DNA of 32,000 bases from assembly GCA_942493095.1 (NCBI GenBank), contig OW818675.1, positions 1,260,001 to 1,292,000 on the forward strand. Reading direction: 5' to 3'. Positions 1 to 29,036 of the stretch are shown piece by piece (positions within the stretch are counted from its first letter, which is position 1; the number at the start of each line of letters is the position of its first letter). Both the position numbers and the translations under genes were made by a program. Under the pieces are notes generated by a model that saw only the letters and a program-made list of their open reading frames with translations, searched no databases and was not told the DNA's origin. This stretch comes from Candidatus Electronema halotolerans. GTDB lineage: Bacteria; Desulfobacterota; Desulfobulbia; Desulfobulbales; Desulfobulbaceae.

Positions 1-835
1 GCACCTCAACCTCTTGAATATTGGCCTCCTGCGCCTGGCTGAACACGGTTTCCAGTACCTCGATTTTCGAGGCCAGCAGTTCCGGGGCAAGCTGGACTTT
101 GATCACCTCGCCGCTGCGGGCCGCATCGGGCTGGGCCGGAGCCATGACATTGGGCCGCACCGTCGCCATTTGCGGGCGGGACTGCGGGCATTCAATGGTG
201 GCCATGATGTTGCCGCCAAAGGCCGGGCGGGTTTGCAGGAGCACGCCGTCTTCCGGGCGGACAGCCAAGGCAGTGCAGTCAGCGGTCAGACCCGCGCCTA
301 AAGCATTTGCCACCTGCGGGATGACCGAGCGGCCTATGGCGGTTGCTCCGGCCAGCACCACTTCCGGCTTGTACTGGACAATCATATATTCCAGCACCTT
401 GCCGTACACATCTTCTCGATACTGAGCCAAGGCCGGATCATCGGCCAGCAGGACTTTGTCCGCACCAGCAGCGATCAGGTCAGCAGTTTTATTCTCAACA
501 TCGGCTCCGAGCAAAACGGCGGTCAATGCAGTGCCGCGCTGGTCAGCCAGCTTTCTGCCAATGCCAAGCAGCTCAAAGGCCACTGGCGCAATGCTGCCGT
601 GCCGGGCTTCGGCAAAGACCCAGATGCCGGACCATGCAGACAGATCGCTTGGCGCGACTTTCTCGGCGGTTTCAATGCGCAGAGCACCCGGCTCGCAGTT
701 GTCCACGCAGGAGCCGCAGAGGGTGCAGTTGTCGCCGACTGCGGCAACGCCGTCTTTGAGGGTGATGGCTCCAAAGGCGCAGTTGGCTTCGCAAACTCCG
801 CAGCCGATACATAAGGTGGTGTCAATTATGAGCAT
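1..835 (-). CDS. etfA: Electron transfer flavoprotein alpha subunit (FixB/EtfA type) with N-terminal 2x[4Fe-4S] ferredoxin domain; 3' end lies beyond the window
   Basis: Absent from the ORF track because it runs off the edge. I translated the minus strand by hand from the ATG (complement of 833-835). The product reads MLIIDTTLCIGCGVCEANCAFGAITLKDGVAAVGDNCTLCGSCVDNCEPGALRIE (two CxxCxxCxxxC motifs), then IWVFAEARHGSIAPVAFELLGIGRKLADQRG...VLAGATAIGRSVIPQVANALGAGLTADC...RPAFGGNIMATIECP. I checked triplet by triplet and found no stop in this frame down to nt 2. The plus-strand ORFs listed here are Ala/Arg/Pro/Ser-rich antisense products. Confidence 0.85.
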   Translation of the reverse strand, partial: MLIIDTTLCIGCGVCEANCAFGAITLKDGVAAVGDNCTLCGSCVDNCEPGALRIETAEKVAPSDLSAWSGIWVFAEARHGSIAPVAFELLGIGRKLADQRGTALTAVLLGADVENKTADLIAAGADKVLLADDPALAQYREDVYGKVLEYMIVQYKPEVVLAGATAIGRSVIPQVANALGAGLTADCTALAVRPEDGVLLQTRPAFGGNIMATIECPQSRPQMATVRPNVMAPAQPDAARSGEVIKVQLAPELLASKIEVLETVFSQAQEANIQEVEV

Positions 836-841
836 ATTTCG

Positions 842-1408
842 TTATAAATTTCTAAAAAATTCTTCGCGTTCAGATTGGGGCATTGCTTTAATTGCTTTCA
901 TTTCATCCGCTGAAAAGACTTGACACCGTACTTCTGCGCTAATACCAACTGAGACTGCAACACCAACAAAAACTTTCTCTAAGAACCGTAAAACGTACTG
1001 ACTGGTCGTACTGCTTGGATTAAGAATAACATGATGAATATTTTCATGAGCGGCTATTTTTTTCGCTCCCTTCTGCAAATCAATGGGCGTAACAACAATC
1101 CCGCCTTGGGCACCTGTATCTTGAATACTGTAGGCAAGTGAGCCAAGTATTGCTTGATTAAGCCGACCTTTTCGATGCTTACATTCAACAATCAGAAAGC
1201 CTTCGCCATTCTTGGAAACACCTTTGGCATCAAGTTCCCAATCCGTGCCAGACGCTCCTGTAACACACTGCTTCCCTTCTACGCATTCAAGGCCAAAGTG
1301 CTCTGCAAATTCATTCAGCAGATACGTTGCAACCTCTTCGTATGATTGCCACGCTTTTTTTTCAGACATTGCCACACCTTCTATCAAATACCATAAATAA
1401 CCAATCAT
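842..1408 (-). CDS. Mrr-like PD-(D/E)xK restriction-endonuclease-fold protein
   Basis: WELDAKGVSKNGEGFLIVECKHRKGRLNQ gives a D...E-x-K nuclease core. It is followed by GGIVVTPIDLQKGAKKIA, as in Mrr_cat-type proteins. An ATGA overlap with the vapC stop (1405-1408) suggests translational coupling. An alternative start is M14 at 1369 (MSEKKAW). Confidence 0.6.
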   Translation of the reverse strand: MIGYLWYLIEGVAMSEKKAWQSYEEVATYLLNEFAEHFGLECVEGKQCVTGASGTDWELDAKGVSKNGEGFLIVECKHRKGRLNQAILGSLAYSIQDTGAQGGIVVTPIDLQKGAKKIAAHENIHHVILNPSSTTSQYVLRFLEKVFVGVAVSVGISAEVRCQVFSADEMKAIKAMPQSEREEFFRNL

Positions 1409-1830
1409 GCAAATGGATTGACTATTTTTGTCCTCTCAAGGACAAAACCATCTTGCATATCTTCGGAATATAAAATGTCTGCGCCGCTTTGGACAGCACA
1501 GACAACAACAAGGCTATCCCAGAAAGAAAAATTATGATTCTCGCGTAGCTCTGAAGATTTTATCAGAATTTCCTTGTCAATCCCTACTACTTCATATCTG
1601 TCATAAAAACTCTGAATAAGTTCTCTCGCTTCTCCCTCGGAAAACTTAACCTTTCTGATAAGATTGGAGCAAACTTCGTTTATTATCTGCGTACTGACCG
1701 CAATTGATTGATTTTGAATCAAAGCTGTTGCGATATTCGCCTTGCGAGCATCTTGTGTCTCGATAAAAGCATACAGCCAGATATTCGAGTCAACAAAGCA
1801 AATCCCGCTTTGTTCATCAGCCACGGTCAT
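1405..1830 (-). CDS. vapC: PIN-domain ribonuclease toxin (VapC family)
   Basis: Acidic PIN signature residues are present in FVDSNIW, IINEV, FWDSL and YSEDM. The size (141 aa) fits. It overlaps the upstream antitoxin ORF by 14 nt. Confidence 0.8.
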   Translation of the reverse strand: MTVADEQSGICFVDSNIWLYAFIETQDARKANIATALIQNQSIAVSTQIINEVCSNLIRKVKFSEGEARELIQSFYDRYEVVGIDKEILIKSSELRENHNFSFWDSLVVVCAVQSGADILYSEDMQDGFVLERTKIVNPFA

Positions 1831-2035
1831 ATATTTCTTCTCGCGTCAACGGTTTAAAATCAGGAATTTTCAAAGGGGATTTCAGCAAGCGGTCAATCAT
1901 GTCAGAAGCCGCTTCCACAGCATCCTCTTTCAGCAGGATCACCTTCACAGTGCTGCTTTGAATCTTCCTTCTGTAGCGTTCAGGAATTTCAATGACACCG
2001 TTTTTTATTCTTGTGCTGAATTCAATCGCATACAT
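1817..2035 (-). CDS. AbrB/SpoVT-like antitoxin (VapB-type) of the PIN toxin
   Basis: 72 aa. The N-terminus TRIKNGVIEIPERYRRKI..VKVILL resembles the looped-hinge-helix fold. It sits immediately upstream of the PIN gene and overlaps it. Confidence 0.55.
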   Translation of the reverse strand: MYAIEFSTRIKNGVIEIPERYRRKIQSSTVKVILLKEDAVEAASDMIDRLLKSPLKIPDFKPLTREEIYDRG

Positions 2036-2036
2036 A

Positions 2037-2816
2037 TCACAAATACCCCCGAATCTCCTCCACCAACTGCGCCACCTGCTCCGCTGCTGTACCGGAGAAC
2101 ATCCTCCGATTGCCGCGTGGCTCCGGCGAGAAGACCCGCGCTACTTTGGTCGGCGAACCAGCCAGACCGATGCACTGCGCATCCGCGTGAATATCCGCAG
2201 CAGAGAGCACCCGGATTTCCGCTTTCTTCGCCTTCATCTTGCCCTTGAGCGAAGCCACCCGTGGCTCGTTGATGTCCTTGACCACGGTCAGCAAGGCAGG
2301 CAGAGGCAGCTGCACAACGTCGTAGCCGTCATCCATCATCCGCTCCACCCGGAGAAAATCTGCCGTTGCCTCACGGGTTTTCTGCACACAGGTGATGTAG
2401 GGTAGCTTGAGCTGTGTCGCCATACCCGGCCCGACTTGGGCGGTGTCGCCATCAATGGCCTGCTTGCCGCAGAGAATCAGATCAAAGTCGCCCAAAGCCT
2501 GCACGGCCTTGGCCAAGGTGTAGGAAGTCGCCCACGTGTCCGCCCCGGCAAAGGCCCGGTCAGAAACCAGCACACCCTCATCCGCGCCACACGAGATCGC
2601 CTCCAGCAGCACATCCTTGGCTTGCGGCGGCCCCATAGACAGAACCGTCACGCTGCCGCCGAGCTGCTCCTTGAGCCGCACCGCCTCTTCCAAGGCATGA
2701 CGGTCAAAGGGATTCATGATCGCGGCCACGCCTTCCCGCGCCAAGGTGTTGGTCTTGGGATCAAGGCGCACATCCTTGGCATCCGGCACCTGCTTGATGC
2801 AGACAATGATCTTCAT
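2037..2816 (-). CDS. etfB: Electron transfer flavoprotein beta subunit
   Basis: MKIIVCIKQVPDAKDVRLDPKTNTLAREGVAAIMNPFDRHALEEA...LILCGKQAIDGDTAQVGP is canonical ETF-beta sequence. Confidence 0.9.
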   Translation of the reverse strand: MKIIVCIKQVPDAKDVRLDPKTNTLAREGVAAIMNPFDRHALEEAVRLKEQLGGSVTVLSMGPPQAKDVLLEAISCGADEGVLVSDRAFAGADTWATSYTLAKAVQALGDFDLILCGKQAIDGDTAQVGPGMATQLKLPYITCVQKTREATADFLRVERMMDDGYDVVQLPLPALLTVVKDINEPRVASLKGKMKAKKAEIRVLSAADIHADAQCIGLAGSPTKVARVFSPEPRGNRRMFSGTAAEQVAQLVEEIRGYL

Positions 2817-2824
2817 ATTCTTGT

Positions 2825-3976
2825 TTATGCGTATTCCCGATTGAGTTCCTGGCCAATGACGTTGCGCTGAATCTGATTGGTGCCCTCGTAAATCTGGAGG
2901 ATTTTCGCGTCGCGCATCATCTTTTCAACCGGATATTCCTTCATATAGCCATAGCCGCCCATGACCTGCACCGCGTCGGTGGTCACTTTCATGGCCACGT
3001 CCGTGGCAAAGACCTTGCATATTGACGAAACCTTGCTTGCGTCGCTGGGATGCGCGTCAATGTGCCGAGCCGCGCCATAAACTAAAGCGCGGGCTGCCTC
3101 AGTTTGTATAGCCATATCCGCCAAAAGATGCTGCACAGCCTGGAAGTGAATGACCGGCTTGCCGAACTGGACCCGCTGCTTGGCATACGTGGCGGCCTCA
3201 TCCAGCGCAGCCTGCGCCAGTCCCACGCCAAGGCTGGCAATGCCGGGCCGGGACACGTCCAGCGTTTTCATCACCGTGATGAAGCCAGTGCCTTTCCTGC
3301 CAATCAGCCGGTCTTTGGGAATCCGGCAGTCCTTCATGATCAGCTCGCGGGTGGCGGAAGAACGGATGCCCATCTTGTTTTCTTTCTTGCCGTAAGAAAA
3401 ACCAGGGTCGCCGTCCTCAACCACAAACATCGAGGCCCCGCGAATGCCTTTTTCCGGGTTGGTCAGGGCAATGACGGAATAAATCTGGGCCTCGCCGCCA
3501 TTGGTGATCCACTGCTTGGTCCCGTTCAGCACCCAATAATCACCGTCGTCAACCGCAGTGGTTTTGATGCCAGCGGCATCGGAGCCGGCATTGGCTTCGG
3601 TCAAACCAAAGGCGGCCAAGCTCTTGCCTTCAGCCACCGCAGGCAAATATTTCTGCTTCAGCTCCTCGCTGCCGGAAATGAGAATGGGCAGGATGCCAAG
3701 CCCGCAGGCGGCAAAGCTGGTGGCCACGCCGGTGCAGCCACGGGCCAGCTCCTCCAAGGCAAGGACAATGTCCAGCATGCCAGTGCCCATGCCGCCGTAT
3801 TGCTCCGGCACCAGCACGGAAAACAGGTCGGCCTTGGCAATGTCGCCCAGCAGCTCGGCAGCGAACTCGTTCTTCTCGTCCAGCTCGGCCCGCAGGGGAA
3901 TGATCTTCTCCTCAGCCAGCTCACGGGCGGTCTCCTTGATCATCCGCTGTTCTTCGCTCAGAAAATAATCCACCAT
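2825..3976 (-). CDS. Acyl-CoA dehydrogenase (short/medium-chain, butyryl-CoA dehydrogenase-like)
   Basis: FGLTEANAGSDAAGIKTTA, YWVLNGTKQWITNG and the C-terminal catalytic-Glu context ILQIYEGTNQIQR are present. Length is 383 aa. Confidence 0.9.
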   Translation of the reverse strand: MVDYFLSEEQRMIKETARELAEEKIIPLRAELDEKNEFAAELLGDIAKADLFSVLVPEQYGGMGTGMLDIVLALEELARGCTGVATSFAACGLGILPILISGSEELKQKYLPAVAEGKSLAAFGLTEANAGSDAAGIKTTAVDDGDYWVLNGTKQWITNGGEAQIYSVIALTNPEKGIRGASMFVVEDGDPGFSYGKKENKMGIRSSATRELIMKDCRIPKDRLIGRKGTGFITVMKTLDVSRPGIASLGVGLAQAALDEAATYAKQRVQFGKPVIHFQAVQHLLADMAIQTEAARALVYGAARHIDAHPSDASKVSSICKVFATDVAMKVTTDAVQVMGGYGYMKEYPVEKMMRDAKILQIYEGTNQIQRNVIGQELNREYA

Positions 3977-3992
3977 GTTCTCCTTTTGCTTT

Positions 3993-4964
3993 CTACCAAT
4001 CTATGAGCATCGAACCCCAAGTGAAGCCGCCGCCAAAGGCGCAGAGCAGCAGCTTGCCGCCGGGCCGCAGCCGCCCTGCGCGCACCGCCTCATCCAAGGC
4101 AATCGGGATGCTGGCCGCTGAGGTGTTGCCGTATTTGTCAACATTGCAGAAGACCTGCCCCGGCTGCGCGCCGAGCCGGTCTGCGAGATTGTCCAAGATG
4201 CGGATATTAGCCTGATGGGGAATGATCAGGTCAATGTCACTGATTGCAAGCTGCTGCCGCTTCAGCAGTTCCAGCACTGCATTTTCCATAGCCCGGACTG
4301 CATATTTGAACACGTCCCGGCCTGACATCTGGATGACGCAGCCCTTGCTTTCCGGGTCAAGCAGGTCAGGATTGGTGCTGGCCGGGCTGTCCATGCAGAG
4401 CAGCTTCCAGAGACTGCCGTCCGAGAACAGGCAGCTATCAATGATGCCGCGTCCTGCCGCGCTGCCAAGGACGCAGGCCCCGGCTCCGTCGCCGAAAAGA
4501 ATGCAGGTGTTGCGGTCTTCCCAATCCACCCGTGCCGACAAGGTTTCCGAACCGATCAGCAGCACCTTGATTGCCGGATCAGCGGCAATGTATTTTTGCG
4601 CCACATCCAGCCCATAGAGAAAACCTGAGCAGGCGGCGTTGAGGTCAAAGGCAAAGGCCTTGGCCGCGCCAAGCTCGGTTTGGACAAAGCAGGCGCAGGA
4701 CGGCATCAGCCTATGCGGGCTGATGGTGGCGACAATGATCAGACCAAGTTCTTCCGCCGTGACTTGGGCGGCTTCCAGAGCCTGTGCTGCCGCCCGCGAG
4801 GCAAGCTGATAGTTTTGCTCGTCCGGCCCGGCAATGCGCCGGGTGCGGATGCCGGTGCGGGCGGTGATCCACTCGTCCGAGGTCTCCACCATCCGCTCCA
4901 GCTCCGCATTGGTCAGGAGCCGCTCAGGCAGGGAGGAGCCGGTGCCAAGCACTGCCGCCCGCAT
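3993..4964 (-). CDS. fabH: 3-oxoacyl-ACP synthase III
   Basis: SDEWITARTGIRTRR, the active-site context DLNAACSGFLYGL, PHQANIRI and GFGGGFTWGS are present. The start overlaps the plsX stop (TGATG). Confidence 0.9.
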   Translation of the reverse strand: MRAAVLGTGSSLPERLLTNAELERMVETSDEWITARTGIRTRRIAGPDEQNYQLASRAAAQALEAAQVTAEELGLIIVATISPHRLMPSCACFVQTELGAAKAFAFDLNAACSGFLYGLDVAQKYIAADPAIKVLLIGSETLSARVDWEDRNTCILFGDGAGACVLGSAAGRGIIDSCLFSDGSLWKLLCMDSPASTNPDLLDPESKGCVIQMSGRDVFKYAVRAMENAVLELLKRQQLAISDIDLIIPHQANIRILDNLADRLGAQPGQVFCNVDKYGNTSAASIPIALDEAVRAGRLRPGGKLLLCAFGGGFTWGSMLIDW

Positions 4965-5974
4965 CAGCTCTGCCCCGCTTCCTGCTGAAGGTGCATGGTG
5001 ATGGCCCGGTTAACCCGGCATTCCACCATCTTGGCCGCCTCTTTGAGGGCGTTGCGGATCGCGACTGCCGAGGAGGTGCCGTGGCAGATGATGCCAACCC
5101 CGTTGATGCCGAGCAGGGGCGCGCCGCCGTATTCCGCATAATCCACCCGTTTGCGGAAGCTGTCAAAAGCAGGCCGAATAAAAAAGGAGGCCAAGCTGGC
5201 CTGCCATGATTTTTTGATTTCCGTCTTGAGCATCTGCTGCATCGCCTCTGCCAAACCCTCGCTGACCTTGAGAGCGATGTTGCCGACAAAGCCGTCACAG
5301 ATCACCACATCCACATTGCCGCCATAGACATCGCGGCCCTCGACATTGCCGATGAAATTCAAGCTGCTGTCCTTGAGCAAATCGTATGCCTCCTTGACTG
5401 CCGCATTGCCCTTGCCCGGCTCCTCGCCGATGCTGAGAAGACCGACACGGGGAGCGGCAGCCCGGTTGAGCAGCAGCTTGCAGCAGAACGAGGCCATGAC
5501 CGCGAACTGATAAAGATGCTGCGGACGGCAGTCAACATTGGCCCCAATGTCCGTGACCAGCACCGGCTCTTTGAGGGTGGGGAAAAAACTGGCAATGCTG
5601 GGCCGGGCAATGCCCTTGAGCCGACCAAGCTGAAGAATGGCGGCTGTCATGGTCGCCCCGGAATGACCAGCGGAAACCACAGCCTCGGCCTGGCCTTTTT
5701 TGACCAGATCAAAGCCGACCATGATGGTGGAGTCTTTTTTTCGGCGCACGGCCTCGACCGCCTCCTCTGCCATGGAAACGGTCTGAGGGGCATGAACAAT
5801 GGACAGACGCGGTTCGGCAGCTTTGCCCCGCAGGGCCAGCTCCTCACGCAGCAGCTCCTCCGGGCCGAGCAGGATCACCTCAATCCCGGAATGCTGCTCC
5901 ACCGCCTGCACTGCTCCGTCGATCAGCACCCTGCTGCCGCAGTCGCCGCCCATGGCATCAAGGGCTATTTTCAC
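4964..5974 (-). CDS. plsX: Phosphate acyltransferase PlsX
   Basis: MKIALDAMGGD..., GATMTAAIL, VCDGFVGNIALK and GAPLLGING are present. It sits in the conserved position after rpmF. Confidence 0.92.
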   Translation of the reverse strand: MKIALDAMGGDCGSRVLIDGAVQAVEQHSGIEVILLGPEELLREELALRGKAAEPRLSIVHAPQTVSMAEEAVEAVRRKKDSTIMVGFDLVKKGQAEAVVSAGHSGATMTAAILQLGRLKGIARPSIASFFPTLKEPVLVTDIGANVDCRPQHLYQFAVMASFCCKLLLNRAAAPRVGLLSIGEEPGKGNAAVKEAYDLLKDSSLNFIGNVEGRDVYGGNVDVVICDGFVGNIALKVSEGLAEAMQQMLKTEIKKSWQASLASFFIRPAFDSFRKRVDYAEYGGAPLLGINGVGIICHGTSSAVAIRNALKEAAKMVECRVNRAITMHLQQEAGQS

Positions 5975-5980
5975 TGCCGC

Positions 5981-6169
5981 CTATGCCAGCTCGTCCCCAA
6001 GCTGATAAATGGTTTTGCCTTTGTATTTGCCGCAGCCGGAGCAGAGCTGATGCGGCATTTTCGGCTCGCCGCACTCAGGGCAGCGGCCCACTGAGGGAGC
6101 GGTCAGGAAATCATGCGCCCGCCGGTTGCGGGTGCGGGAATGGGAATGTCTTCTTTTTGGCAGGGCCAT
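5981..6169 (-). CDS. rpmF: 50S ribosomal protein L32
   Basis: MALPKRRHSHSRTRNRRAH... with a CPECG...CSGCG zinc ribbon. Length is 62 aa. Confidence 0.92.
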   Translation of the reverse strand: MALPKRRHSHSRTRNRRAHDFLTAPSVGRCPECGEPKMPHQLCSGCGKYKGKTIYQLGDELA

Positions 6170-11056: not shown

Positions 11057-12727
11057 TCAGTTGTTGGCCAATTCGATCAGCCGCTCGACAATGGCGGCCA
11101 ACGGCGCGCTGGAGCCGTTGGAAGCGCTTGCCGCTGCGGACTGCCAGTTTGCAGGCACTGCCTGTCCCTCGGCCCAGGAGCCGCCCGGTTCGTAGGAAGT
11201 CCGCGCCCGGTCGCCCGGCCCCGGAGTCCAGAGGAAGTCAGGATGGCGGTTCAGGTACCATTCTCCGCCAATGATCTTGCCGGAGAAATCCAGCTCCAGA
11301 TCATAGTAATAGCGGACTGTGTCAATCGCATCCGCAGCCGAGCTGTCAACCGTGCTCTGGCTGGGCGCAGTCTCGACCGTGTAGGAGACATCCATAGCAA
11401 TGCCGACCATGCTGTCTGTCTGCGGGCTGCGGTACTTGGCAAAACGGTCATTGCTGAAGCTGCTCTTGGACACCGTGGCCTCTGCCAGACTGTTGCGGTA
11501 CACCATTTCCTTGGGATTGAAATAGTAGTAGCGGTAGCCGACCATGGGCTGGTTCCAGACTTCGTAGTCAAAAGTCGCGTCAATGACCATGCTCCGCCCG
11601 GATGCGCCGATCTGATTGACCACGGCCAGATGCCAGGTGCCGGGATTGGTGTCAAAGCAGCGGTCAGAGAGAATCCGCTTGTTCTGCGGATCAGTCGGCG
11701 GATTTGTTTCATTGCAGCGGCCGCCGATGAATTTGACTTGGGGGCTGACTTTAGCCCAGAGCAAGGAGGCCAGTCCTTTGATGTCAGACGGATAAAAGGT
11801 CAGCCATGTTTGCCCGTCCGCAGCCAGGACTTTGACGGATTTTTGGGGCCGGGCCAGCATGTAGGCGGCTGTCGCCCAGCCGTGGCAGATGCCCATCCAA
11901 GCGGCCACGGAGCCGGATTGTCTGTGATAATATTCACCCTCAGCCCACATTTTTTTGGTCAGGGTGTAGTTGCTGTCGCCGACTAAGATGTCATATTTTT
12001 CCGAAGGCGAAAGCAGATCAATGGCCGCTGCATCGCCGCTGGCCAAAATGCTGGCTGCCGGACGGCTTTCAACATAATCGTTGCATTCCTTCCAGTCTAA
12101 TGAATCAGGAAAGCTGGGATCATCATACCGCTTGCCAAGAATGCCCCGGCAGATGGCCCAGTAGTCACAGGACCACGGCGTGTTCCGCAGCCGCACATTC
12201 CGCAGGCCGCTGCTCTCCATGCTTTGCAGACCGGAGTGGCTGAAGGTGTCCACCAAATTGACGGCCTGATCATTGTAATTCCATGCAGCCCGGCCTGCGG
12301 CATCCTCTTCTGATTCAAGAACCAGCTTGCGCTGCTCGTCGCGGGCCTCCACATAGGCCTTTTCCTCAAGCGCGGCCTGATCAAAAGGTGGCTGCGAGAC
12401 CTCGTTCTCTCCGGCCTGCTCCTTCTGCTTGGGCGGCTGCCGGTCCATGAATGCGCCAATATTGTTGACAAAACTCTGCAAATCCGCATTGACCGCCTGT
12501 TCGTCATTCTCAGTCTCAGACCCGGACGCAGCCGCAGCCGGTTTCGGTTCTGCTTCGTGACTGTGCGGATGTTCGTGATCATGATCATGAACATGGTCAT
12601 GCCCGCAGCAGGAATTGCCATGATCATGACTGTGATCAGCAGGTTTGGAGCTGCTGTCACAGCTGCAGCCACAGCTTTTGAAGAAGTTTAACAGAGGGCA
12701 GTTGTGTTTTTTTGACGAGTTGGACAT
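11057..12727 (-). CDS. GP42-type 'transglutaminase elicitor' family protein with His/Cys-rich N-terminal tract
   Basis: VWNQPMVGYRYYY (11522-11560) matches the oomycete Pep-13 peptide VWNQPVRGFKVYE at 7 of 13 positions, including W2 and P5 (11 of 13 if conservative M/V, Y/F, R/K and Y/V replacements are also counted). The candidate nucleophile context is WMGICHGWATAAY (11876-11893). The N-terminus reads MSNSSKKHNCPLLNFFKSCGCSCDSSSKPADHSHDHGNSCCGHDHVHDHDHEHPHSH. I chose the start at 12727 because AGGAGG lies 5 nt upstream; the track start at 12769 lacks this. Confidence 0.7.
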   Translation of the reverse strand: MSNSSKKHNCPLLNFFKSCGCSCDSSSKPADHSHDHGNSCCGHDHVHDHDHEHPHSHEAEPKPAAAASGSETENDEQAVNADLQSFVNNIGAFMDRQPPKQKEQAGENEVSQPPFDQAALEEKAYVEARDEQRKLVLESEEDAAGRAAWNYNDQAVNLVDTFSHSGLQSMESSGLRNVRLRNTPWSCDYWAICRGILGKRYDDPSFPDSLDWKECNDYVESRPAASILASGDAAAIDLLSPSEKYDILVGDSNYTLTKKMWAEGEYYHRQSGSVAAWMGICHGWATAAYMLARPQKSVKVLAADGQTWLTFYPSDIKGLASLLWAKVSPQVKFIGGRCNETNPPTDPQNKRILSDRCFDTNPGTWHLAVVNQIGASGRSMVIDATFDYEVWNQPMVGYRYYYFNPKEMVYRNSLAEATVSKSSFSNDRFAKYRSPQTDSMVGIAMDVSYTVETAPSQSTVDSSAADAIDTVRYYYDLELDFSGKIIGGEWYLNRHPDFLWTPGPGDRARTSYEPGGSWAEGQAVPANWQSAAASASNGSSAPLAAIVERLIELANN

Positions 12728-13024
12728 GATCTCCTCCTTGAATTGGATGGTGCTGCCGAAAAACTGCATAATTTGAATCTACTCCAAAATCAGCAGATCG
12801 CCAAGGCATTGCCTGAAAAATATCATAGTTCATCCTTGAGGCGGCTGAAAGGGCCTGCGGCGGCAAAAACAGGAATTTTTTCCGCAATGCGAGGAGGCAA
12901 GAGCGCTGTTCAACCTTGCCCGGATTTCTTAAATCTGGTAAAAGAATCCGCAGGATGACACGGACAGCCTCTTTTGAGAGGTATTTTTATAAAATACAAG
13001 ATGTTGCGTGACAAGCGGCAATAA

Positions 13025-13373
13025 GTGAAATTGACAAATTTTCTTCAAGAAACACAGAATTCATTAAAAAACAACTACCTTGCCGATGACAGGCCGTGGG
13101 TTGTCGCTTTTTCCGGCGGCAAGGACTCGACATTGGTTTTGCAACTTGTTTATGAGATGCTGCTTGAACTTGACGACCAAGCTGTGAAACCAGTGCATAT
13201 CGTCTGTTCAGACACCCGCGTGGAGCCGCCCAATGTTGCTGAATATCTTCACAACAGTCTGCGGCAGCTGGAAGAACATGCAAAGCAATGCCGTTTTCCT
13301 CTCTTTGTTCATATTGTTCAGCCAACACCTGATGAAAGTTTCTGGTTTATTCTGGTTTAATGTGATAGGGAAA
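13025..13373 (+). pseudogene. dndC: 5' remnant of DNA phosphorothioation gene dndC (PAPS-reductase-fold sulfurtransferase)
   Basis: DDRPWVVAFSGGKDSTLVLQLVYEML...VHIVCSDTRVEPPNV...PDESFW has the P-loop SGGKDS and SDT.VE motifs of DndC N-termini. A 10-bp tandem duplication (tctggtttat/tctggtttaa, 13341-13360) shifts the frame. Without it the reading continues FWFNVIGK, then ends. About 110 of roughly 500 codons remain. Confidence 0.75.
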
Positions 13374-13903
13374 GTTGCATGATGGATGGAATTAACAGAT
13401 ATTTTAAATTGTTTTATAATCTCCGGGCGGATACGAGCAAGAGACGATGGTCTGAAGCAACTTGCTGCCGGGCACCGCACAAGCCTCTTTTCTTGCTTTC
13501 TATTTTTGATCTGATAGCATCAGGTGGAATAGTTGACAATTTTATAACGCCTTCGTTTGAACTCTCTGATTCTTTCGCAGCATACTGGTCAGCTGTCATG
13601 CCTCTTGGAAGTACCGGTTTAATGTGTTTGCCATTTTACCATCTTGCCACATCTGGATTTTGGCACCTTATACCGCAGCCAGATATGTTAGATGAACGTG
13701 GCCGTTCTATCAAATCAATGAAGCGTTTTACTTTTTTCTATCAGGGAGCCAAATTTAGTGATGATTTGTTTTTGTTGTTGAAAAACGAGCATTTCTTAGA
13801 AAAGCTGAGAACAATCTTGATTAAAACTTATTTTTCTCCTGATGCTCAGATAGCTTTAGCGAAGCAATCAATAATAAATTTAGAGTCATCGAAATATAGC
13901 TGT

Positions 13904-14091
13904 GTGGATTCAACTCGCAAGTGCAACTTTTTTTGGTTATCCAAAAAGCATAGGTTGGCTGGCACTTTGAATACTTCATGTAAATTTTCAATTATTTTCT
14001 CTTAGTTAGCGACAAAAGCAAAGTTGTGACACTCCCGTAACTGCCTTTTCTTGCAACCAAAAAAAGTTGCACTTGGAACTTGAATTCACCC
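13904..14091. mobile_element. MITE-like element (about 188 bp) with 35-bp terminal inverted repeats
   Basis: 13904-13938 (gtggattcaactcgcaagtgcaactttttttggtt) matches the reverse complement of 14055-14089 at 31/35 positions. It is flanked by a direct repeat (c)tgt at 13900-13903 and 14091-14094. Excision restores the host reading frame. Confidence 0.65.
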
Positions 14092-14443
14092 TGTAAAATA
14101 CTTGGGACAAATGAAATAATAAAAAATTATGAATTAACAATAGAAGATGAAGGTGTAAAAAATAAAATTCGGAGTCGAGGATTTCGCAAAGCCATTGTTA
14201 AATTGTATGAGCACCGTTGTGCTCTATGCGGCCTTCGCATCTTGACACCAGAAGGGCATACAGTTGTTGAAGCTGCTCATATTATACCTTGGAGTGCAAG
14301 TAAAAATGATCAACCACAGAACGGCATGGCCTTGTGTCGATTATGTCATTGGTTTTTTGACGAAGGTTTGATGGGAGTAGGAAAGTGTTATGAGATTCTG
14401 ATTTCACCTCTTGTCCGTCAGGGTGACAATTATCCCGGCCATA

Positions 14444-14569
14444 TAGCGGTTATGGGTTGAACGGCTATCAAATATCTTTGCTTTGTCAAAATTTTTGTAT
14501 GTATAAATTCAACAAGTTAAATTAAGCATCAATATATCAGGGTGATCACCATTCGGCGTGTAACCGCTA
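14444..14569. mobile_element. 126-bp MITE derived from an IS630-family element, TA target duplication
   Basis: The termini are tagcggtta.../...taaccgcta, flanked by TA (14442-43 and 14570-71). The left end matches the left end of the IS630 copy at 24285 at 23/30 positions. The right end matches at 21/29. Excision plus one TA restores the host frame. Confidence 0.7.
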
Positions 14570-14837
14570 TATAGAGACTATGACCGGTCGGGGCATTTTA
14601 AAACCTGAGAAAAAGATGTTCTGGCCTGATTTAGAATATTTAGAAATCCATAGAAAAGAAATTTTCAGAAAAAATTGATGTTATAAGACTCAATCATTAA
14701 ATTCATAGTTACTCACTTATCGAAAATCCTTGCAGAGGTATATTTTATAACTCGCCTATTACAAAAAAAATGACGGTCAACCTCCTGATATACGATATGA
14801 ACTGATGCTGACCACTTTTGCCGTCACCGTGTACAAG

Positions 14838-21107: not shown

Positions 21108-22616
21108 TTGACAAAATCAACAGGTAAAGATTATGCTGCCGTTATGAATTTCAGTGTTCCTAGTGAAAAAGAAGTCCGTGCTGCATACGCAGAAGGCGAA
21201 GAAGCGGTCGTCGCCCTGTTTAGCAGTATAACTGCGCAGGTTGAAAACCTCGCCGCTCAGTCAGCCAAGCAGTCCGAGATATTGAAGGATTTGCAGGCCC
21301 GGCTGTCGAAAAACAGTCGGAACAGCGGGAAACCGCCTTCGAGCGATGGATACGGTAAAGCGAAGCGAACGGAAAGTCTGAGAGAGTCCGGCAGGAAGCC
21401 GAACGGCGGCCAGCCAGGTCATCAAGGGCATACTCTTGAGCGGTCTGCGGCGCCGGATTCTACGGAGAGGTATAAATCCGAGGAATGCGCGGCTTGCAAA
21501 ATGTCGCTTGCGGATGTCGTCGCTGTCGGAGAGGAGGAACGGCAGGTTTATGATATTCCGGCGATTCGGATTGAAGTGACCTCGCATCGAGCGGAAATAA
21601 AAATCTGTCCCGGCTGCGGCACGGAAAACAGAGGCAAATTCCCGGAAAACGTCGGACAGGGCATCCGTTACGGCACGGGGGTGAAAACTTGGGCGGCATA
21701 TTTCGCGAACCAGCATCATATTCCGCTTGAACGGGCTGCGCAGATTATCGAAGACCTGACCGGGCATTCCGTCTCCGAGGGTTCGCTGCTGAAGGCATCG
21801 GAAGAGCTTTGCGGATGCGTGCGTCCTTCAACGGAAGCAGTCGAAAAACTGCTCATGAATACCGATGTGTTACATGCCGATGAAAGCGGAGTCCGCGTGA
21901 AAGGGAAGCTGCACTGGCTGCATGTCGCTTCGACGAACTGCCTCACCCATTATTCGGTGCATGAAAAACGGGGAAAAGAGGCGATGGACGCAGCGGGAAT
22001 CCTTGGAAAGTTCACAGGAACAGCGACGCATGATCATTGGAAATCGTACTTCAGCTATGAAAACTGCGGTCATGCGCTGTGCAATGCGCATCATCTCCGG
22101 GAACTCAAGTTCATAGAAAAACAGTATGGACAAGTTTGGGCCGGCGAGATGGCCGAGCTGTTGCTTGAAATAAAAGGCGCGGCTGAAAAGCTGAAGCCGG
22201 ATCGGGACGGCTTCGCGCCGGAGAAGATCGAAGAATTTGAGCGGCGGTATGATGAAATCGTCCGACGGGGTTTTGCCGACAATCCGTTCACTCCGCCTAA
22301 GGAGAAAAAACGAGGACGGGCGAAGAAGACTCCGCCGCTCAATTTGCTGACACGGATGCGTGATTACAGGGCGGAGACCCTCGCATTCATGTATGATTTC
22401 CGGGTTCCGTTCGACAACAACGCGGCGGAAAGAGATGTGCGGATGATCAAGGTCAAGCAGAAGGTTTCCGGCTGCTTCCGAACACTTGAGGGGGCAGAAC
22501 GATTCGCCTGTATCCGGGGATATATCTCCACGGTCCGTAAAAATTCAAGAAACATTTTTGAAGCGATCAAAGATGCTTTCCTTGGAAGTCCTTTTATCCC
22601 CGATTCCGCAGTATAA
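21108..22616 (+). CDS. IS66-family transposase
   Basis: A zinc-finger region (CAACK...CPGCG), then HADESGVRVKGKLHWLHV, ATHDHWKSY, CNAHHLRELKF and PFDNNAAERDVRMIKVKQKVSG are present. The start is either TTG 21108 (track) or the in-frame ATG at 21144. Confidence 0.85.
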   Translation: MTKSTGKDYAAVMNFSVPSEKEVRAAYAEGEEAVVALFSSITAQVENLAAQSAKQSEILKDLQARLSKNSRNSGKPPSSDGYGKAKRTESLRESGRKPNGGQPGHQGHTLERSAAPDSTERYKSEECAACKMSLADVVAVGEEERQVYDIPAIRIEVTSHRAEIKICPGCGTENRGKFPENVGQGIRYGTGVKTWAAYFANQHHIPLERAAQIIEDLTGHSVSEGSLLKASEELCGCVRPSTEAVEKLLMNTDVLHADESGVRVKGKLHWLHVASTNCLTHYSVHEKRGKEAMDAAGILGKFTGTATHDHWKSYFSYENCGHALCNAHHLRELKFIEKQYGQVWAGEMAELLLEIKGAAEKLKPDRDGFAPEKIEEFERRYDEIVRRGFADNPFTPPKEKKRGRAKKTPPLNLLTRMRDYRAETLAFMYDFRVPFDNNAAERDVRMIKVKQKVSGCFRTLEGAERFACIRGYISTVRKNSRNIFEAIKDAFLGSPFIPDSAV

Positions 22617-22662: not shown

Positions 22663-23099
22663 GTCAGGCTGAGTAGTTACAGAGCTTGTTTGATGCAGTG
22701 GCTGCTGGTTCTTCTGAGCTGGAGGCAGCAGCCAAGTTTGTTCGGGGCATTGCCCGCAATGCGTGCCGTTTCACCTGAACACTAATTTTTCCGATAATTT
22801 ACGAGCTGCTTTCCCTGCGAGGTGATTCGACTGGGCCGTTTTGTGCTGTTGGCAGGATTGCGGATGGACGAGTAAAAAATACCTGCGATGTAAAGCAGAT
22901 ACCTTTTTCACAACTGACGCTGCACTTGCTGTACAACGGTCTGTCAATAATCCTTTAAAAAAGGAGGAGGCATCCTTGCAATAGGCATCCTTTTTTTGCT
23001 ATAAAAAGATATGACCTTATTGGTTTTATGTCGCATAGCAGCATAAAAAAGAAATGCTAAGCCTTTTAACAAAAAAAGGCGCAGCTCAAGGAGAGATTG

Positions 23100-24287
23100 A
23101 TGAATAAAAAGACCTTAACAGCATTATGTTTGGCATCACTGATGCTTACAGCTAAAATGGCGCAAGCGCAAGAAGAGCAGGCTCCTTCATGTGAAACTGC
23201 TTATGCGTTTGGTTCTAAAACCTTCAGCGATATTGGCTTTACTCGTTGGGGGTGGGAGATAGTTCTACAGGGAAATGAGTTTGTAAGCACCAAAGTTTAT
23301 GCTGGTGCGGGACAGACTGACATCTTGAAAGGAACGTATGTAGGGGATCTCGAAGTTACTAGGGACAACGATCTTGTCACCTTTCAACTCCAGATGCTGG
23401 ATGGCTTCTCTGTAAGCGAAACACATATTTATGTGGGAACTTCTGATCTCTCGAAATCAGCACCTGGGCAATATGCCAATCTTACTGAAGGTAAGATCAA
23501 TTCTTTTGGCAATGGCCTGTTTAAAGTTGAACTTAATGATACTGTCACCGAGGGCGCGAAGTTATATGTTGTCGTTCATGCAGTAGTTTGTACTGGTGGA
23601 GGGGATCCAAATAATGGTGGAGACGATCCAAATGCCGAATGTGACCCAGCAGACAGCCCGTGGAAAGGAATTTGGGACAGTGCTGTAGAGTACAAGGCTG
23701 ACGATGTTGTTGAATATGAAGGCAGCAGCTATGTCAACGTTTGCTGTGATCCGCAAACAGCAGGCACAGCACCTCCTGATGATTTGTTTAATTCCGTCAC
23801 TAACGAAGGTTGTTGGAAACTCGTAGCTGAGAAAGGCGATACTGGAGCGACAGGTGAAACAGGTCCGACCGGCGAGCAAGGTGAAGTAGGTCCCGAAGGT
23901 CCGCAAGGGCCAATAGGCCCCGCTGGCCCGCAAGGTCTGAAGGGTGATAAAGGTGACAAGGGCGACACCGGCGATCAGGGAGAAGTAGGTCCCGAAGGCC
24001 CGACCGGTGCTCAAGGCCCGCAGGGCGAAGTAGGCCCGATTGGCCCGCAAGGTCTGAAGGGTGATAAAGGTGACAAGGGCGACACCGGCGATCAGGGAGA
24101 AGTAGGTCCCGAAGGCCCGACCGGTGCTCAAGGCCCGCAGGGTGAAGTAGGCCCGATTGGCCCGCAAGGTCCCGAAGGCCCGACCGGTGCTCAAGGCCCG
24201 CAGGGCGAAGTAGGCCCGATTGGCCCGCAAGGTCTGAAGGGTGATAAAGGTGACAAGGGCGACACCGGCGATCAGGGAGAAGTATAG
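23100..24287 (+). CDS. 5' fragment of the collagen-like gene (signal peptide, N-terminal domain, first 50 G-X-Y triplets), terminated by a TAG supplied by the IS end
   Basis: This is the track ORF 23097..24287. ATG 23100 is preferred over TTG 23097. The stop TAG at 24285-24287 is the first three bases of the IS630 terminus. Confidence 0.85.
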
Positions 24288-25329
24288 CGGTTTCGTATTG
24301 AACAGATATCAAACCCAGCAATGACGGAAAAACGATTTGATTGATTTTGACTTAACCGTTTTCAGAGATATATCATAAGCTTCCATCAGCTCACGCTCTG
24401 TTCTCGGCTTCAATTTTCTTATAGTGTTTTTCATTACTGACCAGCAGTATTCAATAGGGTTCAGTTCAGGACGATAAGGAGGGAGGAAAATGATCTTCGC
24501 TCCTGTACTTCTGATCAAAGCGAGAGCTTCTTTGTTTTTATGAGGACTGGCATTGTCAAGAACGACTGTCTTGCTGCTGTCAAGATATTTCAAAAGATAA
24601 TTTTTTATATAGAAATAAAAGACATCTCCTGTCATGGTGCCTTTAAATTTCATGCACTTCAATATTTTTCCAAACTTTACAGCTCCTATCATGCTTATTC
24701 TTTTCCCTTTACCTGAAGGTCTTTTTGAAAAAGCTCTTGTTCCTTTTCTTGATCTTGCAAATTTTCTCGACATGTTCAAACAGCATCCTGTCTCATCAAT
24801 AAAGATGAAATTCTTTTTGTCAGCCTCGAGCAGGCCTGCAAGGTAATTAACTGTCTTTGCTATATTTTCCTCTTTATACGCCGCCGGATCGCGGAAAGTT
24901 TTTTTTTCCGGCTGATTTTCAGTCTGGCGAGAGTTTCGCACAGCGTGGAAGGTGCTATTTTTAAATTGAATTTCTCGTATAAGCGATCACACATCTCTTC
25001 AAGCGTAAGATCGTTCTCGTCATCAATCATGCTGGTCAGAAAAGGCATATGAACTTCCTTGATTTTCGGAGGATTTCCGCCTTTATGAGGCTTCGGCTCA
25101 AGCGTCCCCTCAGTCTTCCATCTTTTTACAAGACTTTGAACAAATTTATAGGAAACGTCAAGCAAATCTGCAGTTCTTCTCAATGATTTCTGTTTTTCAT
25201 AAACAGACAAGACTTTCTTTCTGAAATCAATAGAATAAATCATGGCAGACCTCCGTGTGTAAAAAAATGGAAAAAACAGACAAGTCAAGTTTAATCTTTT
25301 TCTGATAACCATACAACCTGAAACCGCTA
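24285..25329 (-). mobile_element. IS630-family (Tc1/mariner-like) insertion sequence, 1045 bp, TA target-site duplication
   Basis: The termini are tagcggtttc.../...gaaaccgcta: 10 bp perfect, about 27 bp imperfect. TA occurs at 24283-84 and 25330-31. The uninterrupted array motif gagaagTAggtccc is reconstituted on excision. The element is visibly AT-rich relative to the host repeat. Confidence 0.85.
24309..25243 (-). CDS. IS630-family DDE transposase, encoded in two overlapping frames joined at an A9 run
   Basis: orfA (25243..24860) carries the HTH part, MIYSIDFRKKVLSVYEKQKSLRRTADLL, with GGAGG 6 nt upstream. orfB (24941..24309) carries FIFIDETG, VVLDNASPH and PPYRPELNPIEYCW, the DD(35)E triad. 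A -1 shift on AAAAAAAAA (24899-24907) would give ...KISRKKKTFRDPAAYKEE... and a 311-aa fusion. Confidence 0.8.
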
Positions 25330-25331
25330 TA

Positions 25332-28300: not shown

Positions 28301-29036
28301 GGGCGACACTGGCGATCAGGGTCTGCCTGGCAACGACGGTGCTCAAGGCCCGCAGGGTGAAGTAGGCCCGATTGGCCCGCAAGGTCTGAAGGGTGATAAA
28401 GGTGACAAGGGCGACACCGGCGATCAGGGAGAAGTAGGTCCCGAAGGCCCGACCGGTGCTCAAGGCCCGCAGGGTGAAGTAGGCCCGATTGGCCCGCAAG
28501 GTCTGAAGGGTGATAAAGGTGACAAGGGCGACACTGGCGATCAGGGTCTGCCTGGCAACGACGGTGCTCAAGGCCTGCAGGGTGAAGTAGGCCCGATTGG
28601 CCCGCAAGGTCCCGAAGGCCCGACCGGTGCTCAAGGCCCGCAGGGCGAAGTAGGCCCGATTGGCCCGCAAGGTCTGAAGGGTGACAAGGGCGACACTGGC
28701 GATCAGGGTCTGCCTGGCAACGACGGTGCTCAAGGCCCGCAGGGTGAAGTAGGCCCGATTGGCCCGCAAGGTCCCGAAGGCCCGACCGGTGCTCAAGGCC
28801 CGCAGGGTGAAGTAGGCCCGATTGGCCCGCAAGGTCTGAAGGGTGATAAAGGTGACAAGGGCGACACCGGCGATCAGGGAGAAGTAGGTCCCGAAGGCCC
28901 GACCGGTGCTCAAGGCCCGCAGGGTGAAGTAGGCCCGATTGGCCCGCAAGGTCTGAAGGGTGATAAAGGTGACAAGGGCGACACTGGCGATCAGGGTCTG
29001 CCTGGCAACGACCGGTGCTCAAGGCCCGCAGGGTGA
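25332..29036 (+). pseudogene. Middle fragment of the collagen-like gene (409 G-X-Y triplets, phase 0), ending at a frameshift-induced TGA
   Basis: ggt ccc gaa ggc ccg acc ggt gct caa... reads [42 protein letters not shown]... The sense frame contains no ATG, GTG or TTG codon. After the extra C at 29012/13 it reads NDRCSRPAG, then TGA at 29034-29036. Confidence 0.8.

Follow-up and report, generated by a model that had tools for sequence, protein, structure and literature searches.

Organization of the etfB–etfA junction

The window, a 32,000-nucleotide stretch of contig OW818675.1 (positions 1,260,001 to 1,292,000) from the cable bacterium Candidatus (Ca.) Electronema halotolerans, contains the genes etfB and etfA, which encode the two subunits of an electron-transfer flavoprotein, separated by 1201 nt of low-GC DNA. 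This cargo carries three genes, which encode an antitoxin-like protein of 72 amino acids (aa), a PIN-domain protein, and a protein with an Mrr_cat domain. The locus is formed by the following features:

3976..2825, minus strand, acyl-CoA dehydrogenase gene (acd)
2816..2037, minus strand, etfB, 259 aa, stop codon TGA at 2039-2037 (PF01012 ETF, 1.7e-48; NF040731, 2.6e-94)
836..2036, minus strand, low-GC cargo of 1201 nt, a composite of a toxin–antitoxin (TA) module and a nuclease module, delimited by GC content and homology blocks
1817..2035, minus strand, antitoxin-like open reading frame (ORF) of 72 aa, ATG at 2035-2033, assigned from its NCBI name and the motif NGVIEIPERYRRKI
1405..1830, minus strand, predicted PIN-domain (VapC-like) toxin, 141 aa (PF01850, 4.5e-11)
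1370..1404, minus strand, spacer between the PIN stop codon and the Mrr_cat ATG, module boundary
842..1369, minus strand, predicted Mrr_cat / PD-(D/E)xK nuclease-fold protein, 175 aa, stop codon TAA at 844-842 (PF04471, 4e-6)
836..841, minus strand, 6-nt spacer between Mrr_cat and etfA (TAA cgaaat ATG)
3..835, minus strand, 5′ part of etfA, which runs off the window, ATG at 835-833 (PF01012, 1.5e-52, and Fer4 families)

The left edge of the cargo slot is formed by the final etfB codons TAT TTG TGA, and a single nucleotide separates this stop codon from the ATG of the 72-aa ORF. The 72-aa and PIN ORFs overlap by 14 nt. All three cargo genes are intact, co-oriented with the operon, and packed within 1–38 nt, with inter-ORF spacers of −14 to 38 nt. 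The GC content of the cargo is 0.41 (about 0.39–0.42 across the stretch), compared with about 0.60–0.61 in the flanks, and the drop in GC coincides exactly with the etfB–etfA interval. A preliminary description of this DNA had placed the etfB stop codon, the three ORFs, and the etfA ATG correctly. It had also recognised the three genes as an AT-rich insert, and they are indeed compositionally foreign, lie exactly between etfB and etfA, and occupy an initiation site coupled to etfB. The same gene order is present in independent read-set assemblies, and the arrangement is therefore not an assembly artefact. EtfB is 93–94% identical to EtfB in other Ca. Electronema genomes, and the part of EtfA encoded in the window comprises an N-terminal 2x[4Fe-4S] ferredoxin domain and an ETF domain.

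Neither long repeats, direct or inverted, nor terminal repeats were detected in the cargo, and the protein family search found no transposase or integrase there, in agreement with the earlier remark that no integrase, ends of insertion sequences (IS), or long repeats are visible. No Rfam family was detected at E ≤ 1 in positions 600-2300. A consensus scan found no promoter-like site in the cargo or upstream of the antitoxin ORF, but the scan is crude and a promoter in the interior of etfB is possible; the number of promoter and terminator sites in the cargo was not above that in shuffled sequence. The 1370..1404 spacer contains the motif AAGGTG, which resembles a Shine-Dalgarno (SD) sequence, and a short GGTATTTG resemblance to the 3′ end of etfB. 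The latter was considered as a remnant of the etfB 3′ end and was not significant in Smith-Waterman comparison with shuffled sequences.

The cargo genes belong to known families

The PIN protein matches PF01850 with 43.8 bits versus a cutoff of 23.6, and its acidic quartet of D14, E52, D105, and D124 is invariant in 31 homologs. Its sequence is 100% identical to that of a Ca. E. halotolerans protein in the database. The 72-aa ORF has no match in Pfam, NCBIfam, or PADLOC. Its alignment with AbrB by hhalign is weak (15 residues aligned, E-value 0.06), a search against PDB sequence profiles provided nothing informative, and its AlphaFold model, with a pLDDT of 84, has no PDB fold match in Foldseek. 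The identical protein in the database is named 'SpoVT-AbrB domain-containing protein [Ca. Electronema halotolerans]'. The protein has 39 homologs; a G-x-[VI]-x-IP motif is located at its N-terminus, and its C-terminal tail is conserved. The closest homologs of both the PIN protein (84% and 78%) and the 72-aa protein (94% and 88%) are encoded at the same junction in loci L100 and L103, where the two genes are conserved together, and the dN/dS ratio of the 72-aa ORF relative to L100 is about 0.1. These features point to a VapBC-like type II TA system, in which the antitoxin would be AbrB-like and the toxin a PIN/VapC-like RNase of predicted toxicity. As in VapBC-type systems, the PIN gene, with its four acidic residues intact, is overlapped by a small ORF upstream of it, and both genes are under purifying selection. 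Unlike in those systems, the pair in the window has no evident promoter or operator of its own, its antitoxin ATG directly follows the stop codon of a metabolic gene at a distance of 1 nt, and the antitoxin is not recognised by Pfam.

The sole Pfam domain of the third cargo protein is Mrr_cat (27.4 bits versus a cutoff of 21). An alternative ATG at 1408 would extend the protein to 188 aa, but gene callers and the alignment of homologs favour the start at 1369. Across 52 homologs, K49 does not vary, and D47 and E62 hardly do so; the window protein contains E62-C-K64, where most homologs have ECR. The best Foldseek match of the AlphaFold model (pLDDT 80) is AF1548 (1y88, 3.5e-6), followed by the nuclease domains of Can2 and MspJI, and EcoT38I was also matched. 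The winged-helix domain Mrr_N is not present in the 175-aa protein, which, given its length and single Pfam domain, is not a full type IV Mrr. The sequence and the model support a stand-alone protein with a PD-(D/E)xK nuclease fold. Individually, the cargo genes are ordinary: a VapBC-like pair and a lone Mrr_cat gene, each a new representative of a family already known. PADLOC and NCBIfam gave no system-level assignment of the cargo.

In Ca. Kuenenia stuttgartiensis (L106–L108), a Mrr_cat homolog is located beside sugar-nucleotide genes and is preceded by an overlapping ORF of 69–72 aa that belongs to no known family. These two genes may constitute a module with the nuclease as its toxin.

All recovered cable-bacterial junctions contain cargo

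A genome scan with EtfB identified 80 loci. In the 58 non-cable comparison loci, which are relatives with EtfA aligned from residue 1, the etfB–etfA spacer has a median length of 20.5 nt, is at most 51 nt long in 51 of the 58, and reaches a maximum of 340 nt, which bears out the premise that the two genes are normally adjacent. The 19 cable-bacterial junctions originate from eight named genomes and 11 metagenome contigs. The named genomes are that of the window, Ca. Electronema sp. JM (L001), UBA5173 (L002), Ca. Electrothrix marina (L003), Ca. Electronema sp. VV (L083), Ca. Electrothrix laxa (L084), Ca. Electronema sp. JC (L086), and 'Desulfobulbus sp. F4' (L109). Nine of the 11 contigs were found by a DNA-pattern scan keyed solely on the cable-type 3′ end of etfB, which is blind to the cargo. 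The metagenome pattern matches L089, L092, L094, and L099 were considered as displaced etfB 3′ ends and are chance matches in unrelated genes.

Each of the 19 junctions is occupied. Seventeen are complete and hold 641–1791 nt of cargo; in the other two, the contig ends within the cargo, of which at least 330 nt is present. The empty TGATATG site that the preliminary description had anticipated is absent from all 17 complete cable-bacterial junctions; the closest cargo-free relative, L074, the EtfB of which is 83% identical, reads TAAgaATG, which resembles the predicted empty site. The GC content of the cargo is 0.37–0.43, whereas the GC content at third codon positions (GC3) of the hosts ranges from 0.52–0.58 in Electrothrix-like sequences to 0.70–0.85 in Electronema. 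The junctions display at least 12 cargo configurations, and the recognisable cargo genes are all co-oriented with the operon. They encode:

TA pairs with a PIN protein: AbrB-like/PIN, DUF2281/PIN, RHH/PIN, and 81-aa/PIN
other TA pairs: BrnT with a BrnA-like protein, and a HicB-like protein with HicA
nucleases: Mrr_cat and a 304-aa Mrr-like protein
abortive infection (Abi) proteins and ATPases: two AbiJ_NTD4 proteins, an Abi_C protein, and an AAA_21 ATPase with a 156-aa partner
remaining cargo: DUF2188, DUF6794, small membrane or secreted proteins, and numerous orphan fragments of antitoxins

The larger, defence-type cargo is present in L088 (cargo positions 5-1770), L096, L098, and L091. It includes the AAA_21 ATPase, which is 432 aa long, its 156-aa partner without a known family, the two divergent AbiJ_NTD4 proteins, and the Abi_C protein.

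No integrase is encoded among the neighbouring genes in any locus. We found no report on TA genes in cable bacteria or on the etfB–etfA junction in the literature, and toxins, mobile elements, and Etf are all unmentioned in the paper that describes the genome of Ca. E. halotolerans. The etfB–etfA junction is probably a lineage-wide slot for exchangeable cargo in the sampled Ca. Electronema and Ca. Electrothrix.

The cargo is composed of modules with separate histories

DNA homology between the window cargo and other junctions breaks at ORF edges, which divides it into blocks at cargo positions -4..633 and 665..1201. The TA block extends from the etfB stop codon to the PIN stop codon, and the left end of the Mrr block is 3 nt ahead of the Mrr_cat ATG. 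To the right of the AbrB-like/PIN pair, L100 and L103 contain not Mrr_cat but DUF6794 with an orphan RHH gene, or the gene of a 95-aa membrane protein. Orthologs of Mrr_cat (63–93%) are located immediately upstream of etfA in six other junctions (VV, JC, F4, E. laxa, L093, and L095), in which the left partners differ. Because the TA pair and Mrr_cat each recur at the junction without the other, the cargo is a composite of two modules with separate histories. Where Mrr_cat meets etfA, the window shares the sequence TAAcgaaatATG with VV, JC, and L093, and the spacer is 6 nt long in all four and in F4. In the window, the Mrr_cat stop codon is in frame with etfA (TAA CGA AAT ATG), and the in-frame spacing of 6 nt is retained in VV, JC, L093, and F4.

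This modularity bears on the preliminary description, according to which a single 1200-bp cassette of three genes had been inserted at TGA-T-ATG in one event and had duplicated a 5-bp CATAT target. The pentamer does occur at both ends of the cargo, at 833 and 2033, which are 1200 nt apart, and deletion of one copy together with the insert would generate a plausible coupled junction, similar to that of the cargo-free L074. However, its presence at both ends is not above chance as a sign of target duplication. CATAT is also found on the plus strand at 1456, 1593, and 1828; ATATG occurs three times on the coding strand of the cargo versus 2.2 expected occurrences; and 12% of the ATGs in the cargo are directly preceded by AT. 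At the left edge, the window has tttGTGATATGTATGC and the orthologous junction of L100 has tttGTGATGTATGC, a difference of TGATATG versus TGATG. Since L100 carries the same TA pair in the same place, the left AT of the supposed duplication is a 2-nt indel. At the right edge, cgaaatATG following Mrr_cat is common to VV, JC, and L093, the left modules of which are unrelated to that of the window. The spacing of exactly 1200 nt is a coincidence, as judged from these sequences. Together with the separate occurrence of the TA pair and Mrr_cat, and with the lack of detected terminal inverted repeats or a transposase, these observations largely refute insertion as one cassette, which we regard as highly improbable.

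The proposal that the antitoxin, PIN protein, and Mrr nuclease form one tripartite defence or TA system needing all its parts would fit the co-orientation of the genes, the ATGA-type overlap that would exist if Mrr_cat started at 1408, and the lack of a spacer for independent control. It is very unlikely, given that the pair occurs in L100 and L103 with other genes in place of Mrr, that Mrr_cat occurs with BrnT/BrnA-like genes or with antitoxin fragments alone, that the favoured start of Mrr_cat is at 1369, and that no PADLOC model describes such a system.

The modules are much less diverged between lineages than the genes that surround them. Between the window and the Electrothrix-like L100, the flanking acd, etfB, and etfA are 75–78% identical in nucleotide sequence (dS 1.1–2.3), whereas the antitoxin gene is 93% identical (dS 0.28) and the PIN gene 86% (dS 0.49). 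The comparison with E. laxa shows 74–75% identity in the flanks and 84% in Mrr_cat (dS 0.46). A 300-nt tract of Mrr_cat is 98–100% identical between the window and VV, the flanks of which are 77–92% identical. The identities of Mrr are also incongruent with those of Etf, with 81% for E. laxa and 72% for the congeneric JC. All three window cargo genes have dN/dS ratios of 0.1–0.3, which indicates that they are maintained by selection.

The lower divergence of the cargo than of the flanks, the incongruence of Mrr and Etf, and the GC content near 0.40 indicate ongoing horizontal exchange of modules among cable bacteria. A purely vertical history, in which one ancient insertion in the cable-bacterial ancestor was followed by divergence in place and differential loss, would account for the occupation of every recovered cable-bacterial junction and for the presence of BrnT/BrnA-like/Mrr_cat (VV and E. 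laxa) and of RHH remnants in both genera. Recurrent chimeric fragments with identical breakpoints also look inherited. Nevertheless, vertical descent is unlikely, because it conflicts with the between-genus identities of 93% and 86% in the cargo against 75–78% in the flanks (dS of 0.3–0.5 versus 1.1–2.3), with the Mrr identities, and with a cargo GC content that has not been ameliorated towards the host GC3 of 0.75. The preliminary description had named, as an observation that would speak against an insertion, relatives in which the three genes are ancestral at this position and have native composition. The position is indeed shared among relatives; the composition is not native, with a GC content of about 0.40, and the cargo is much less diverged than the flanks.

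Expression of the cargo and of etfA

In 15 of the 19 junctions, the cargo opens with an ORF that overlaps the stop codon of etfB or lies no more than 4 nt from it. The overlap, (A/G)TGA or TGATG, is supplied by the etfB end TAT-TT(G/A)-TGA and is used by unrelated cargo genes. The cargo genes, which have no evident promoter, would be transcribed by read-through from the operon, and translation of the antitoxin would be coupled to the etfB stop codon.

The etfA start is a conserved codon, as the preliminary description had assumed: in nearly every locus, the alignment with homologs starts at residue 1, and residue 9 of EtfA is its first ferredoxin cysteine. The SD core is present before etfA in one of 16 cable junctions, compared with 27 of 58 non-cable loci (Fisher p=0.003). 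The window etfA has no SD core at -20..-4, which agrees with the earlier observation; the absence is not remarkable on its own, as etfB, plsX, and three other long ORFs of the window also have no SD sequence. The median minimum free energy of folding of the etfA region -30..+30 is −3.6 kcal/mol in cable bacteria versus −7.2 kcal/mol in non-cable loci (p=1e-5), and the value for the window is −1.7. EtfA may be produced by re-initiation 6 nt after the Mrr_cat stop codon or by SD-independent initiation on an unstructured, A/U-rich leader. The suggested dependence of EtfA on re-initiation is thus possible but not required, since the leader is A/U-rich and predicted to be weakly structured.

A terminator-like hairpin of 12 pairs, followed by TTTTATATT, is located in the PIN coding region (1476-1504, minus, coding strand), and might attenuate transcription into Mrr_cat and etfA.

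In the window (positions 1-6000), L083, L084, and L086, acd, etfB, and etfA are nested in a fatty-acid synthesis cluster with the gene order yceD-rpmF-plsX-fabH-[acd-etfB..etfA]-fabG-acpP-fabF. The cargo of cable bacteria with this order is therefore also positioned upstream of fabG, acpP, and fabF.

Possible scars in the cargo and the proposed mechanism of its acquisition

Duplicates of the flanking genes are present inside the cargo of three junctions. The 3′ end of etfB is duplicated over 33 nt in L002 and 47 nt in E. laxa (L084), and the 5′ end of etfA over 54 nt in E. marina (L003), each with p ≤ 0.005 relative to shuffled sequences; no flank duplicate in the window cargo was significant in this comparison. 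Small chimeric ORFs recur with the same breakpoints. Their building blocks are the N-termini of BrnA-like and HicB-like proteins, the C-terminus of DUF2281, and the C-terminal tail of the window-type antitoxin (KPLTREEIY..). In JC, where it is out of frame, and in L093 and L095, this tail is encoded immediately before Mrr_cat; in VV and F4, Mrr_cat is preceded by similar DNA. Almost all partial fragments in the cargo are pieces of antitoxins, and full-length orphan RHH antitoxins also occur, whereas no partial copies of the TA toxins PIN, BrnT, or HicA were detected among the junction cargo. The internal duplicates, chimeric ORFs, and antitoxin fragments look like scars of recombination and decay. 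In the decay of addiction modules, the loss of the toxin is tolerated and the loss of the antitoxin is not, and the fragment pattern appears to follow this order.

Recombination between cable-bacterial lineages, by which modules would enter and leave the slot, seems to account best for a cargo that is mosaic, carries such scars, and is uniformly oriented. It could be homologous, microhomology-mediated at the ATGA/GTGA overlaps, or homology-facilitated illegitimate recombination, the last of which would leave flank duplicates; transposition or an integrase would not be involved. Selection against changes that break the operon would act on top of recombination, and the essential flanks would shield the slot from large deletions. 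The toxin genes would be lost preferentially, so that antitoxin fragments remain. The most likely role of the cargo would be addiction or defence of the abortive-infection type.

Insertion of a transposon or IS was considered and rejected: there is no transposase, there are no terminal inverted repeats, and CATAT is at chance frequency and absent from the orthologous junction. An integron cassette was likewise rejected, as there is no integrase among the neighbours, there are no imperfect inverted repeats, and the spacers measure −14 to 38 nt.

The precision of the left edge raises the question of a dedicated site-specific system of capture or homing. In such a system, a nuclease, for example Mrr_cat, would cut unoccupied or foreign junctions, and repair would copy the cargo into them, as in intronless homing; alternatively, an unlinked recombinase would use the etfB 3′ end GGGTATTTRTRA as its att site. 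An empty junction would read ..GGGTATTTGTGA(T)ATGCTCATAGTTGAC.. Unrelated genes are fused to the etfB stop codon with nucleotide precision (ATGA, GTGA, or TGATG) in 13 of the 19 junctions, but four junctions have left spacers of 9–54 nt, and selection for coupling and compactness could yield the same precision. The etfB 3′ ends that surround the TA module in L002 and E. laxa as direct repeats resemble attL and attR; however, flank duplicates are present in only three of the 19 junctions and differ in length, and there is no recombinase in or beside the slot. A nuclease gene adjoins etfA in eight junctions, whereas ten have no Mrr-type gene at all, and Mrr homologs elsewhere (Kuenenia and prophage-like contigs) occupy unrelated contexts. 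The lack of empty sites among the 17 complete junctions would also be explained by homing. Precise-position transfer between flanks that are about 75% identical is poorly explained by homologous recombination, which leaves some room for a site-specific mechanism, although we consider one improbable.

Several points weigh against an exchangeable slot that is filled by recombination and expressed from the operon. Sampling is skewed to Electronema-like sequences, and many described Electrothrix species are missing. Transfer between genera to the same nucleotide position is hard to achieve by homologous recombination, as the flanks are about 75% identical and the tract of high identity starts at the etfB stop codon. 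The search with cargo DNA found no vehicle in plasmid or phage collections, and a scan of viral contigs with the Mrr alignment identified only distant relatives, with 46–51% identity. The putative antitoxin is assigned from its position, database name, and short motif, and searches of Pfam, PDB sequences, and folds gave nothing. PADLOC does not recognise any of the three cargo proteins as a defence component. Read-through, coupling, and the route of EtfA initiation are suggested by the geometry of the genes. Finally, the hairpin and T-run at 1504-1476 lie inside the PIN gene, within the proposed read-through transcript, although such sites are not above their count in shuffled sequence.

Comparison with known hotspots of accessory genes

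Hotspots of defence and TA genes, or genomic islets, between conserved core genes have been described for E. coli, Pseudomonas, and Vibrio. Such hotspots are usually described between operons and are tied to integrases or prophages. The etf locus behaves like a core-gene-flanked hotspot in its shared flanking core genes, variable cargo of TA, Abi, and nuclease genes, foreign composition, and horizontal turnover. It differs in being miniature (0.6–1.8 kb) and located inside an operon, at the coupled junction of two subunit genes, and in being always occupied and co-oriented in the recovered junctions. It has no integrase, satellite, or prophage hallmarks, and no mobile element of these kinds that could deliver the cargo was seen in any locus.

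Phage morons are accessory genes, often TA, at fixed intergenic positions, classically with their own promoters and terminators. Integrative and conjugative elements (ICE) of the SXT/R391 family contain hotspots of variable DNA in a conserved backbone (PMC2791158). The etf slot shares with ICE hotspots and morons the presence of accessory genes at a fixed position between conserved co-transcribed genes, which are not disrupted. Unlike them, it belongs not to a mobile element but to a chromosomal cluster of central-metabolism and lipid genes, and its cargo genes, in contrast to morons, appear to have no promoters and terminators of their own. The arrays of chromosomal integrons resemble the slot in that their cassettes are promoterless, co-oriented, compact, and dependent on an upstream promoter, with TA genes common among them; in the etf slot, however, no intI was seen, the search for inverted repeats was negative, and the spacers are too short for attC sites. 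The free-standing homing endonuclease genes seg and mob of phage T4 are positioned between conserved phage genes. They are similar to the Mrr_cat gene in being small, co-oriented nuclease genes wedged between two conserved genes with minimal spacers. The window nuclease differs in belonging to the PD-(D/E)xK Mrr_cat family and in being missing from about half of the junctions, none of the 17 complete junctions is an empty allele, and its cleavage activity is at most predicted.

In a more far-reaching interpretation, the etfB–etfA junction would be a dedicated cassette slot without an integrase, in which promoterless TA, Abi, and nuclease genes are captured with nucleotide precision, their start codons joined to the etfB stop codon as ATGA, GTGA, or TGATG, and are moved across genera by an undescribed site-specific or homing-like mechanism. 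Expression of the captured genes would depend on the central-metabolism operon, which could link suicide or defence modules to the energy state of cells in a multicellular filament. We regard this interpretation as improbable.

As an exchangeable cargo slot, the etf junction is a natural system for the acquisition of promoterless selfish or defence genes without the machinery of mobile elements. It is also a test case for the balance of heterodimer subunits when 0.6–1.8 kb of foreign genes is located between the cistrons and the SD sequence of the downstream gene has been lost. In addition, it provides a highly variable marker for strain typing of uncultured cable bacteria.

Other features of the window

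A second low-GC islet (0.35–0.44) is located at 12800-14800. It contains a 208-aa ORF without a family, in addition to the HNH_2 and PP-loop sequences listed below, and looks like a degraded remnant of a defence or mobile element, as judged from its genes. The region at about 25300-31500, approximately 6 kb long, is highly repetitive, has strong GC and AT skew, and probably encodes a giant collagen-like repeat protein; the long minus-strand ORFs listed in this region look like shadows. The two ORFs of the IS630-type element are probably joined by a frameshift. The remaining features are:

13025-13360, weak PP-loop fragment, in the 12800-14800 islet
14080-14460, HNH_2 endonuclease ORF (2.7e-12), in the 12800-14800 islet
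21108-22616, IS66-family transposase (DDE_Tnp_IS66, 6e-48)
23097-24287, collagen-triple-helix repeat protein (PF01391, 4e-24)
24309-25312, minus strand, low-GC IS630-type element with two overlapping ORFs, HTH_Tnp_IS630 and DDE_3
11057-12769, minus strand, protein of 570 aa, His-rich at its N-terminus, with a transglutaminase-elicitor domain (PF16683, 5.5e-35)

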